Shown in pieces: positions 16,466 through 18,565 of a DNA stretch of 64,000 nt. Under the pieces are notes generated by a model. The model searched no databases. It had not been told where the DNA came from and saw only the letters and a program-made list of their open reading frames with translations. The first letter of the stretch is position 1, and every line of letters starts with the position of its first letter. The position numbers and the translations under genes were made by a program. This stretch comes from a virus. Its lineage: Duplodnaviria > Caudoviricetes. The DNA is taken from IMG/VR virus record IMGVR_UViG_3300042196_000418. One strand, written 5' to 3'.

Positions 16466-18565
16466 TCAAGCGTCGAGTAGGCCGAGCTGGTCGTAGCTTC
16501 GGGTGCCGCGCAGGTAGACGACGGCATCCGCCACCCAACGCGCGCGGTCTTGTTGCAGGTATCGATCGCGCTCCTCGACCGCAACCCAGATCACGAAGTC
16601 CATGAGCTGCCGCAGTAGCAACTTGTCGGGTCCATGTGCGGCCAGGCGTTTGATCAACGCCTTGACAGATTCCTGCCCCTCGCGCGGCGGTGCGGGAACC
16701 ACGATGGGCACCAAGCCGGCATCGCCGAGCGCCACGTCGCCCGGCACGGGATGCCTCCCACCGACGCGCAGGGTCTTGCCGGCGAGGGTGCGAAAGCGCA
16801 GTTGCTCGCGATCGCGCTGTAGATCCTCCGCCCACGTACAACGACCGCGGCTGAGCTTCAGGTCTCGATCGTAGCTGTCCCACGTCATCTTCGCGGTGAG
16901 CTGGAGAGGGCCGTCCAGCAATAGCAGCTGAGTCACGTGTGCTTCGAGCGAGAGCTCAGCCGCCGGGAAAACGCGGTACGCACCGGCACGATGATCACCG
17001 GCGTCTGCACGCTGGCTCGTAACGGTGATCGATGGCAGGTCGGACATCTCGCGCCAGACAACCCCGAAGGTCACGTCGCGCGTCTCGCCCACGGAATCCG
17101 TGGCGAGGCGCAGCGGCCTCCCCTCGCGCTTGTGATCGTGCACCACGCGGAGCACCTCGCGTCTGTCTCTCGGACACATGCGCGACGACAGATAGAACCA
17201 ACGCCGCGTTCCAGCAACGTCCGCAAACGAGCGCATCGATCGTGGGCTGTTCCACACGACGAGACAATCTGGGTGCGTACGTGTCTTCAGGCTGCGGAGT
17301 AGCTTCCGGGGCGTCGGAACCTTGGCGCGCGGCTTCGGCCACGTCGCCGCAGTCCTGGGTTCAAGGCGCCCGAACGCCTCCGGCATCCCGATTTCTCTGG
17401 CGCCCTCGACGATCGGATAAGGGACGGTCGAGACGAACGTGACGGTCGATCGAAAGTGCGCAACCAAGGTCCTCAAGGTGTCGACGACAACGGGCGCGAT
17501 CGGTGCGGGCAGTCGCCACGCGTCTTCCACCAAGACCATGGCGCACGCGATTCGATGCAGGCGACGGCACGAGGCTGGACGGTTGTCGAACAAGAGACCG
17601 ACAACGTCGCGCAGCGTCGTGGCGATAACCGGCGCATCCCAGTCTTCGATCGCGACGGGGATACCGCGGTTTCGCGAATAAAAGGCAGACGGCACGACGA
17701 TCGCTTCACCAAGGATTCCTCGCAGCTCCTCCACGCGCTGCTCAAGCGCGGCCTGTGTCGCGCAGACAATGACGACGCGCTGTAGGCCGTGCCGGACGGC
17801 ATGCCCCACCGCATAGCAAGCCAAGCTCCGCGCGTCGACGATGCTCGACGGCGCCGAGAGCTGATACCAGCCCAAAGGTTCGGTGGAGATCTGCTCACAC
17901 GTGTGCCAGAAAGCATCACGGAGGCGCGTCAGCTCGTCGCGCTTAGTCCAATGCCGTGGAGGATGCGCGAGCAAGCGTTCGTGTAAGCTCGCTAGATTCA
18001 CAGGCTGCGGAGTGGGTTGCGGCGTGTCCGACACGCTGGCTTCCCATGCTTGTGCTTCCGCACGATCGGCATCGACGTGCGCCGAGAAGATGAGGCGCGT
18101 GAAGAGCTCGCGGTGCGCGGTGCCAGAGAAGCTGCGCGATGCAATGCGATGCCCGAGAATCCCCGGCGCGATGTCTCGTAAGCAGTGGCTGTAGGTCGCG
18201 CCTTCCGTGCAGATGCCAGGCAGCTCGCTCAGATCAGGAATTCCTGCGTGCGTTCCTGCGATCGCGAGAGCGACCAACTCTCGAACCTCTGCGGGCAGCC
18301 AGCGGCACGCGTACCACGCGCCGACGAACGAATGGTTCACGCGATCGTTCGCGAACGGAACACGCACGTGTTTCTGAAACTCGACAGCGGCCTTGCCTAG
18401 GTCGGACCACAGTGCGGCGACATGGGCTTCAGGTGCGCAGCCAAAGAGCGCGGCCAGATTACGCGCACGCGCTGCGGTCGCTCGAATGTCCTCATCTAAC
18501 GATCGCACGTAGCGACCCGCAGATCGCGCTATCAGCTGTGTCGTCTTCGCCATGCCCTTGTTCAC
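16466..18565 (-). CDS. cas3: Cas3 (HD plus SF2 helicase architecture) with substituted catalytic motifs; predicted inactive
   Basis: Colinear with I-C Cas3: DLGK..EFQ, VNHS..GA, AIAG.HAG.PD, RLIFS..VDAD, WDAPVI.TT, LFDNRP.SCRRLH.IA, LSSRMCP..R. The catalytic positions are altered (see findings). The start may instead be the ATG at 18553. Confidence 0.9.
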   Translation of the reverse strand: MNKGMAKTTQLIARSAGRYVRSLDEDIRATAARARNLAALFGCAPEAHVAALWSDLGKAAVEFQKHVRVPFANDRVNHSFVGAWYACRWLPAEVRELVALAIAGTHAGIPDLSELPGICTEGATYSHCLRDIAPGILGHRIASRSFSGTAHRELFTRLIFSAHVDADRAEAQAWEASVSDTPQPTPQPVNLASLHERLLAHPPRHWTKRDELTRLRDAFWHTCEQISTEPLGWYQLSAPSSIVDARSLACYAVGHAVRHGLQRVVIVCATQAALEQRVEELRGILGEAIVVPSAFYSRNRGIPVAIEDWDAPVIATTLRDVVGLLFDNRPASCRRLHRIACAMVLVEDAWRLPAPIAPVVVDTLRTLVAHFRSTVTFVSTVPYPIVEGAREIGMPEAFGRLEPRTAATWPKPRAKVPTPRKLLRSLKTRTHPDCLVVWNSPRSMRSFADVAGTRRWFYLSSRMCPRDRREVLRVVHDHKREGRPLRLATDSVGETRDVTFGVVWREMSDLPSITVTSQRADAGDHRAGAYRVFPAAELSLEAHVTQLLLLDGPLQLTAKMTWDSYDRDLKLSRGRCTWAEDLQRDREQLRFRTLAGKTLRVGGRHPVPGDVALGDAGLVPIVVPAPPREGQESVKALIKRLAAHGPDKLLLRQLMDFVIWVAVEERDRYLQQDRARWVADAVVYLRGTRSYDQLGLLDA

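Follow-up and report, generated by a model that had tools for sequence, protein, structure and literature searches.

A type I-C Cas3 homologue of full length whose helicase and nuclease motifs are inactivated, conserved beside its own Cascade genes and CRISPR array in phage-like elements

For what purpose is a Cas3 protein retained once its catalytic motifs have been lost? Type I CRISPR systems are defined by the shredding of DNA by Cas3, and the question is raised by a 64,000-nucleotide stretch of viral DNA (Duplodnaviria; Caudoviricetes; IMG/VR record IMGVR_UViG_3300042196_000418), referred to below as the window, in which a gene resembling the cas3 of type I-C systems lies next to genes of a type I-C effector complex (Cascade) and a long CRISPR array. 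A first-pass annotation, made from the sequence of the window alone, described this gene, here named dcas3 and its product dCas3, as a full-length Cas3 with both nuclease and helicase motifs inactivated, and suggested selection for a non-enzymatic role as an R-loop lock, a shield that excludes host Cas3, or an adaptor for host Cas1-Cas2. The analysis described here indicates that dCas3 is very probably a selected, ATPase-dead pseudoenzyme. To the further reading that dCas3, without ATP hydrolysis and without the canonical two-metal HD site, is maintained in a mobile-element variant of type I-C as an inert partner of Cascade, we assign a probability of roughly 0.5.

The open reading frame (ORF) of dcas3 comprises 699 codons (Table 1), in accordance with the frame of about 700 residues without stops or frameshifts reported by the first-pass annotation; a database copy of the protein (P0002) starts at the ATG at position 18553, four codons into the ORF. 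Estimated from base composition, the chance of a 700-codon open frame in DNA of 63% GC is about 1e-9. Contigs from three metagenome runs on sediment carry an identical sequence, without any indel listed for the gene; two of these runs may be its source. The PADLOC profile for Cas3c matches dCas3 over its whole length (residues 7-693, E = 7e-70), and phmmer aligns the protein with the Neisseria lactamica Cas3 structures 8zns (E = 6e-23) and 8g9u (E = 1e-20). In a Pfam search the HD, DEAD and Helicase_C families all remain without a match, and the NCBIfam model cas3_HD (TIGR01596) scores just under its cut-off (41.4 versus 43.45 bits). An AlphaFold2 model based on an alignment of 110 sequences, most of them active Cas3 proteins, reaches a predicted local distance difference test score (pLDDT) of 90.9 and a predicted template modelling score (pTM) of 0.92; it replaces an earlier, poor model from 12 sequences (pLDDT 56). 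Foldseek places the newer model closest to 8zns (query TM-score, TMq, 0.80; E = 3e-32), followed by 8g9u_P (0.70) and then by type I-E Cas3. By sequence comparison and predicted fold, the ORF is confirmed as a true full-length homologue of type I-C Cas3 (Cas3c).

The catalytic columns were tabulated for 110 sequences, namely dCas3, ten relatives at close or intermediate distance and, as representatives of active Cas3c, 99 sequences from clusters at no more than 50% identity; the representative library as a whole yielded 3835 Cas3-like matches. In N. lactamica Cas3, the residues H8, H25, H52, D53, H118 and H119 bind two Fe ions (PMC11417383). The corresponding residues of dCas3 are R14, D26, S54, D55, T105 and H106; four of the six ligands are replaced, and D55 and H106 are kept, as are H78 and D165/D167 elsewhere in the HD domain. 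In N. lactamica numbering, H25, H52, D53, H118 and H119 are found in all 99 active proteins. R14 is the weakest item in the HD domain, with an arginine also found at this position in 10 of the 99. The helicase motifs are affected throughout. Apart from the remnants of Walker A and motif II (Table 1), motif III consists of STV (residues 379-381) instead of the TAT of active Cas3c, the region of motif V reads TDSVGETRD (489-497), and motif VI reads VTSQRADA (515-522) instead of QxxGRxNR, with loss of the motif VI arginine. Among the active proteins the Walker A threonine, lysine and threonine occur in 99, 99 and 97 of 99, respectively, and the Walker A glycine, the D/E/Q of motif II, the A/T of motif III and the Q/G/R/N/R of motif VI in 97 to 99. 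Because these residues are nearly invariant in the active proteins, the changes in dCas3 do not reflect ordinary variation within the family. The substitutions listed by the first-pass annotation (ARS, EDI, SDLGK, GTH, PSSIVDA, EDAW, STV, TDSVGETRD and VTSQRADA) are thus all present at the residues it gave, and the alignment with active Cas3c that it had proposed as a check supports them, least firmly at R14.

The altered gene is not confined to the window. A search of 5.8 billion proteins returned 13 relatives with 47-83% identity, all of them full-length unless a contig end or a late start call shortens them (the frames of the seemingly short P0008 and P0016 continue to full length ahead of their called starts), and none carries a Pfam helicase or HD match. 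At least 12 relatives with 70-83% identity have open frames together with an identical set of fixed substitutes. Within the crown group of this family, the eight sequences tabulated share the same substitutes at twelve positions (D26, S54, T105, S240, S241, D244, A245, D348, W350, Q518, D521 and A522). No member of the family was found in 185,579 species genomes and IMG/VR, and neither P0001 nor an alignment, used as query, retrieved related loci from collections of viral, metagenome and genome sequences. Ratios of nonsynonymous to synonymous substitution rates (dN/dS), computed pairwise after Nei and Gojobori (NG86) on DNA from six loci and not as a codon-model fit, are 0.16-0.24 for dcas3 among crown pairs (dS 0.6-0.96), compared to 0.09-0.30 for cas5c, 0.13-0.34 for cas8c and 0.2-0.6 for cas7c. 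By domain the values are 0.15 for HD, 0.21 for RecA1, 0.20 for RecA2 and 0.20 for the C-terminal domain (CTD), with a per-domain range of 0.15-0.32 across crown pairs. The comparison of dN/dS among homologues that the first-pass annotation had suggested hence indicates purifying selection in all four domains. A decaying pseudogene that happens to stay open would be in keeping with the absence of most catalytic residues and with the GC content at third codon positions (GC3), which is lower in dcas3 (0.73) than in the neighbouring cas5, cas7 and cas8 genes (0.81-0.87). It is difficult to reconcile with open frames in more than a dozen homologues at dS 0.6-2, with dN/dS near 0.2 in every domain, with identical replacement residues throughout the clade, and with an insertion in the CTD that was gained and then conserved (see below). 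On dN/dS and the fixed substitutions we reject decay by luck, which we consider highly improbable. Selection for a non-enzymatic role, as suggested by the first-pass annotation, is well supported by full length in all relatives, fixed substitutes, low dN/dS and the gained insertion, whereas the specific roles it proposed are not separated by these data.

The order in which the activities were lost can be followed along one clade. An exhaustive search of representatives provides deeper relatives located between the crown group and active Cas3c, namely P0014 (48% identity), P0016 (38%) and P0017 (32%). In a quick maximum likelihood tree of seven dead and 17 active sequences (the careful search is unfinished, and P0016 forms a long branch), the seven dead sequences make up one side of a branch with a Shimodaira-Hasegawa-like approximate likelihood ratio test (SH-aLRT) value of 100, in the topology P0017,(P0014,(P0016,crown)). 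P0017 has a complete HD site and keeps the DE of motif II; its Walker A motif reads PHGASKI, and motifs III, V and VI are degenerate. P0014 keeps the HD site as well as GRxNR, has lost the Walker A lysine and carries DDAW as motif II. P0016, when read from its true start, already shows VEDI and SDIGK together with an intact GHH, such that the loss of HD ligands is partial in this protein; GTH is confined to the crown group. Since these motif states match the order of the tree, the sequences indicate that the helicase motor died first and that the HD nuclease site followed, being taken apart in two steps. The series P0017, P0014, P0016 and crown therefore offers a ready evolutionary trajectory of pseudoenzyme formation.

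The complete HD sites of P0014 and P0017 next to a dead helicase imply that a nuclease-without-motor stage existed in the clade, and this bears on the suggestion that dCas3 is itself a cryptically active enzyme, acting as an ATP-independent nickase whose HD pocket (D26, S54, T105 and R14 with D55, H78, H106 and D165/D167) is remodelled for a different metal. The substitutes are fixed, they are oxygen ligands and not random residues, and D, S and T could bind a harder metal; in addition, the D392A variant of N. lactamica Cas3 kept some nuclease activity (PMC11417383). On the other hand, three histidines are lost that are invariant in 99 of 99 active homologues and coordinate Fe in N. lactamica Cas3, and the protein fails to reach the cas3_HD cut-off. 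We consider such a hidden activity improbable.

The DNA-contact block EDWDAPVIATT of the RecA1-like domain is retained, and its W309 corresponds to W354 of N. lactamica Cas3, which is needed for helicase-dependent cleavage (PMC11417383). The block LFDNRPASCRRLHRIA of the same domain is likewise retained. A third conserved stretch, PEAFGRL, resembles the anchor loop; its F398 aligns with F437 of N. lactamica Cas3, the phenylalanine at the anchor loop's tip that inserts in a pocket of Cas8c. A complex prediction for residues 1-535 of dCas3 with residues 1-460 of Cas8c gave scores of 0.32, 0.00 and 0.00 and constitutes evidence neither for nor against docking. Besides the conserved blocks, the dead clade has acquired an insertion in the CTD. 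The spacing from F591 to V622 is 30-32 residues in all 11 dead-clade proteins versus 18-22 in the 99 active ones, corresponding to an insertion of 11-13 residues that is present in 11 of 11 and 0 of 99 proteins, respectively. It follows the pattern G..P....G[DE]A.L.P, accounts for the model's single long loop of low confidence (602-615), and lies within the most constrained stretch of dCas3 (residues 571-630, dN/dS 0.147). An insertion that was both gained and conserved argues for a new function and not for loss alone.

The genes for the remaining type I-C effector subunits, cas5c, cas8c and cas7c, adjoin dcas3 in the window and in eight related loci. The order dcas3-cas5c-cas8c-cas7c-array recurs in L001 (on a 359-kb contig), L003, L004, L005/L006, L007 and one contig of the European Nucleotide Archive, and P0016 shows it as well, on two contigs with lengths near 221 kb (L009 and L010); in the P0017 locus (L008) the contig ends inside cas8c. 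The related contigs have lengths of 221-359 kb, are phage-like and originate from sediment and soil, and they combine long runs of small genes without family assignment with genes for ThyX, Prim-Pol, YpsA-like proteins and IF3. This arrangement bears on the possibility that dCas3 is a dominant-negative decoy, that is, an anti-CRISPR that docks on a host I-C Cascade R-looped on the element, blocks the recruitment of active host Cas3 and thereby shields the element. Anti-CRISPR activity is known for viral cas homologues, Cas3-like ones included (Katz et al., bioRxiv 10.1101/2023.06.24.545427), and the anchor-loop phenylalanine is kept in dCas3. However, the Cas-derived anti-CRISPRs described are orphan genes in anti-defence clusters, whereas dcas3 heads its own operon and array in every locus, and the trait has persisted with Cascade across lineages that are only 32-38% identical. 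The cognate Cas8c is moreover very divergent from the canonical protein (best PDB match E = 4e-9 over 77 residues), which points to a dCas3 adapted to its own Cascade. A decoy appears unlikely, and the shield against host Cas3 proposed by the first-pass annotation fits less well for the same reason, as dcas3 is never an orphan and always accompanies its own divergent Cascade operon and array.

Table 1. Features of the dcas3 locus. Positions refer to the window, residues to dCas3.
Feature	Position	Strand	Residues	Description
CRISPR array	1..12142	(-)		36-nt repeat unit (GTCGCGATCGCTGTCTGCGGTCGCGCGGGTTGAAAC, cas orientation) present at least 155-160 times; runs off the window start
Leader	12143..12319	(-)		177 bp, from cas7c stop codon to first repeat
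cas7c (Csd2)	12320..13402	(-)		
cas8c (Csd1)	13445..15502	(-)		divergent from solved Cas8c structures
cas5c	15512..16144	(-)		TIGR01876, 90 bits, above the 85-bit cut-off
78-aa ORF	16198..16434	(-)		own Shine-Dalgarno site; in the 321-bp insert between dcas3 and cas5c
dcas3	16466..18565	(-)		one open frame of 699 codons; Cas3c homologue with helicase and HD motifs inactivated
CTD insertion	16718..16768	(-)	about 600-616	GGRHPVPGDVALGDAG; dead clade only
RecA2-like domain	16976..17365	(-)	about 401-530	motifs V and VI degenerate
RecA1-like domain	17366..17890	(-)	about 226-400	
Motif II remnant	17516..17527	(-)	347-350	EDAW instead of DExQ
Walker A remnant	17831..17851	(-)	239-245	PSSIVDA, without Gly, Lys and Thr
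HD domain	18026..18532	(-)	about 12-180	
Probable ribbon-helix-helix gene	18669..18878	(+)		69 aa, divergent from dcas3; weak NikA-like match (E = 0.014)

The probable ribbon-helix-helix (RHH) gene is found directly upstream of dcas3 in all six crown loci compared (L001 and L003-L007; 65-87% identity by tblastn), where public gene predictions missed it, and probably encodes a regulator of the dcas3 operon. Together with the stepwise loss across the clade and the partial HD loss in P0016, it is one of three features that the first-pass annotation had not seen. Of an adaptation module, we found no cas4, cas1 or cas2 between cas7c and the array or in the 10-kb flanks of the related loci, and no second cas3 nearby. 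A Pfam scan of the 69 ORFs between 19.3 and 64 kb of the window identified 22 families, none of them Cas1, Cas2, Cas4, DEAD, Helicase_C or HD.

The spacers of the array have a length of 33-40 nt and a GC content of 63.5%, equal to that of the element itself. Nearly all of the first 33 or so repeats from the leader are perfect and mismatches increase toward the distal end, a polarised decay that implies addition of spacers at the leader end. The 3' end of the repeat, GGGTTGAAAC, may be compared with ...TTGAAAC, which we take to be the canonical I-C 3' handle. The arrays of the relatives are long and mostly degenerate, for example eight pristine repeats and a tail of about 5 kb in L001, and about 50 heterogeneous repeats in L009; no spacers are clearly common to related loci. 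Several identical or nearly identical spacers occupy distant, non-collinear positions in the array of the window (sp28 equals sp147; sp30 and sp45, sp35 and sp43, and sp120 and sp148 are close matches). Compared by blastn-short with the window and all loci, the spacers gave only chance matches of 13-16 nt; the whole array had no match in phage and plasmid collections, and three recurrent spacers, searched with every sixth base wild-carded, gave 0 matches in metagenome, genome and viral collections.

A long array with no integrase gene close by is one of the observations that would suit a recruitment adaptor, in which dCas3 acts as a scaffold on R-loop-bound Cascade and brings in an activity provided in trans, such as an active Cas3, another nuclease or, to capture spacers close to targets, the host Cas1-Cas2(-Cas4). 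The strongly constrained, clade-specific CTD insertion looks like a new interaction surface, the duplicate and near-duplicate spacers at distant positions suggest that the same protospacers are sampled repeatedly, and type IV-A3 systems have been shown to acquire spacers in trans (bioRxiv 10.1101/2023.06.23.546257). Yet no conserved candidate for a partner gene stands beside the module, where only the small RHH gene is conserved. Primed acquisition in known type I systems, furthermore, depends on translocation by Cas3, of which dCas3 is predicted to be incapable. We regard the adaptor as unlikely too, albeit slightly less so than the decoy.

The reading that we prefer, at the probability of roughly 0.5 given above, is that of dCas3 as an inert partner of its own Cascade, a non-catalytic subunit at the R-loop that would stabilise Cascade binding or read it out, within a module comprising the RHH regulator, dcas3, cas5c, cas8c, cas7c, the leader and the long array. 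Given intact Cascade genes under constraint and an array that has been extended from the leader side, DNA binding guided by crRNA (CRISPR RNA) is presumably in use. Cascade with crRNAs from the array would form R-loops on matching DNA; dCas3, whose anchor-loop phenylalanine and HD surface are kept, would still dock on Cas8c and could use the DNA-contact motifs that it retains (W309 and the motif Ib/Ic blocks) to grip the displaced strand, with neither translocation nor cutting. The system would then act as a stable, programmable roadblock that silences, or blocks the replication of, competitors or host genes instead of shredding DNA, and new spacers would probably be inserted by an integrase acting in trans, encoded either by the host or at another place on the element. 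Cascade is known to repress transcription without Cas3 (Katz et al., bioRxiv 10.1101/2023.06.24.545427), and silencing by type I systems lacking cas3 is attributed to Luo 2015 and Stachler 2016 in PMC7162821; the outcome proposed here would resemble that of engineered type I CRISPRi with cas3 deleted. The clamping of R-loops by dCas3 is far less certain than its status as a pseudoenzyme. Only tentatively, and at somewhat less than even odds, do we propose a distinct derived I-C sub-variant, in which an inert Cas3 would be an obligatory structural subunit that clamps R-loops for programmable, cleavage-free silencing or replication block, and in which a borrowed integrase would fill arrays exceeding 150 spacers.

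Several points weigh against an inert Cascade partner. The need for an inert protein of 700 residues in mere binding is unexplained, and cleavage-free systems usually drop cas3, as in CRISPR-associated transposons (CASTs), or use a different, live helicase, as with DinG in type IV. The fixed residues D, S and T at the HD site could still serve as ligands for a metal, and the site may be remodelled and not dead. An active cas3 or cas1, cas2 and cas4 may be located elsewhere on the element, as the scans covered the window and the 10-kb flanks. The lower GC3 of dcas3 together with its differing tree (see below) suggests that its history may be partly separate from that of its Cascade partner. Finally, no spacer target was found in any search, such that promoters, origins, competitors or the host may be targeted, and the sequencing runs listed for the sequence include no RNA run.

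With respect to the tree, cas5c, cas8c and cas7c each show a deep, fully supported split of L004 and L007 from L001, L003, L005 and the window, whereas the dcas3 tree is star-like with L003 as outlier. In approximately unbiased (AU) tests the Cascade split is not rejected on the dcas3 data (p = 0.31), and the reverse test is marginal (p = 0.015). The differing trees may be due to shuffling of modules; with indecisive tests, recombination between dcas3 and the Cascade genes is not established.

We note a number of further observations on the locus and its surroundings. The 78-aa ORF between dcas3 and cas5c has no Pfam or PADLOC match and is absent from the related loci, where the two cas genes abut or overlap; it may be a passenger gene, for example a regulator or an anti-defence protein. 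At the same junction in L005 (6648-6954) and in L006, a 58-aa ORF composed of the N-terminus of cas5c and a fragment of cas8c is followed by a duplicated 3' end of cas3, and because of this chimeric scar the junction looks like a recombination hotspot. Cas7c proteins of this family, including that of the window, match Cas7 profiles in two stretches whose order is swapped. In L009 (14677-15858), residues 62-223 align with profile positions 89-249 and residues 294-339 with positions 6-51. Genes located upstream of the cas module on the same (minus) strand encode an NT5C-type 5'-nucleotidase (20646-21290), a protein with a VWA domain (21941-23554), a 'Swiss Army Knife RNA repair' protein of the HAD_SAK_2 family (23633-24277) and, at 27386-28414, a tyrosine integrase. 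Matches to R2K ATP-grasp and DUF6884 are found elsewhere among the ORFs of 19.3-64 kb. An ATPase of AAA_21/SMC_N type (323 aa, 62056-63027, plus strand) is the probable source of PADLOC matches of the AriA/PtuA/GajA/LmuB type and may be a defence-type protein; a separate gene of the window has a strong PDC-M57A match (1e-28). Two duplications are located at positions 25357-25659 and 57448-57545, one of 150 bp in tandem with 92% identity and one of 51 bp, direct and perfect, that spans a gene junction.

The retention of Cas3 under selection after the loss of first the motor and then the nuclease suggests a second, structural function at the R-loop that is normally hidden behind catalysis. If the proposed mechanism is true, it would explain how giant phage-like elements can use very large spacer libraries without damage to co-resident DNA, and it would provide a natural model that separates Cas3 docking from Cas3 catalysis, as well as a naturally occurring, compact pair of Cascade and dCas3 with which DNA could be bound programmably. 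In our literature search, neither a conserved Cas3 inactivated by nature nor a class 1 system with a retained dead Cas3 came up, although an earlier mention in Al-Shayeb et al. 2022 (Cell) is possible.

Compared to canonical type I-C Cas3 of N. lactamica (8zns/8g9u; PMC11417383; bioRxiv 10.1101/2023.08.05.552134), dCas3 shares the fold of the HD, RecA1, RecA2 and C-terminal domains (TM 0.70-0.80), a gene position ahead of cas5c-cas8c-cas7c, and both the DNA-contact tryptophan and the anchor-loop phenylalanine. It differs in the absence of four of six HD ligands, the GKT of Walker A, DExQ, motif III and the motif VI arginine; it is about 80 residues shorter, it carries the 11-13-residue CTD insertion, and its locus has no cas4-cas1-cas2 after cas7c. 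Type I-C variants of huge phages were described as lacking Cas1/Cas2 and as having 'a helicase protein instead of Cas3', and cleavage-free repression was proposed for them in a study that also noted small phage arrays, with a median of six repeats (Al-Shayeb et al. 2020, PMC7162821). They resemble the present family as huge phage-like elements with I-C-like Cas5, Cas7 and Cas8 and no adaptation module. Their helicase, however, is unrelated and presumably live, whereas dCas3 is a true, dead Cas3c orthologue, and the phage arrays of that study are small, compared to 50 to more than 155 repeats in the dcas3 family. Type IV-A systems (Csf proteins with DinG, on plasmids) are likewise carried by mobile elements without an adaptation module, and their nuclease-free silencing with spacers acquired in trans corresponds to the outcome proposed here; they use an ATP-active DinG and Csf effectors, in contrast to Cas5c/8c/7c and a helicase-like partner without ATPase motifs. 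The Cas-derived anti-CRISPRs AcrIB3, AcrIB4, AcrVIA2 and AcrVIA2.1 (bioRxiv 10.1101/2023.06.24.545427) are also cas homologues of viruses or mobile elements that have diverged from the enzyme, AcrVIA2 being derived from Cas3, but they are orphans away from cas operons and arrays, unlike dcas3. AcrVIA2 further has no HD domain and depends on its DEAD box, whereas dCas3 keeps all domains and has no DEAD box. A last parallel can be drawn to class 2. Effectors that are naturally deficient in nuclease activity include Cas12k in CASTs as well as Cas12m and Cas12c, which confer binding-only immunity. These are single proteins of class 2 systems; what they have in common with dCas3 is selection for binding without cutting, which for dCas3 is proposed. 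If the proposal is true, the dcas3 locus would represent the first natural 'dCas3' system, and a class 1 counterpart of the binding-only Cas12 effectors.

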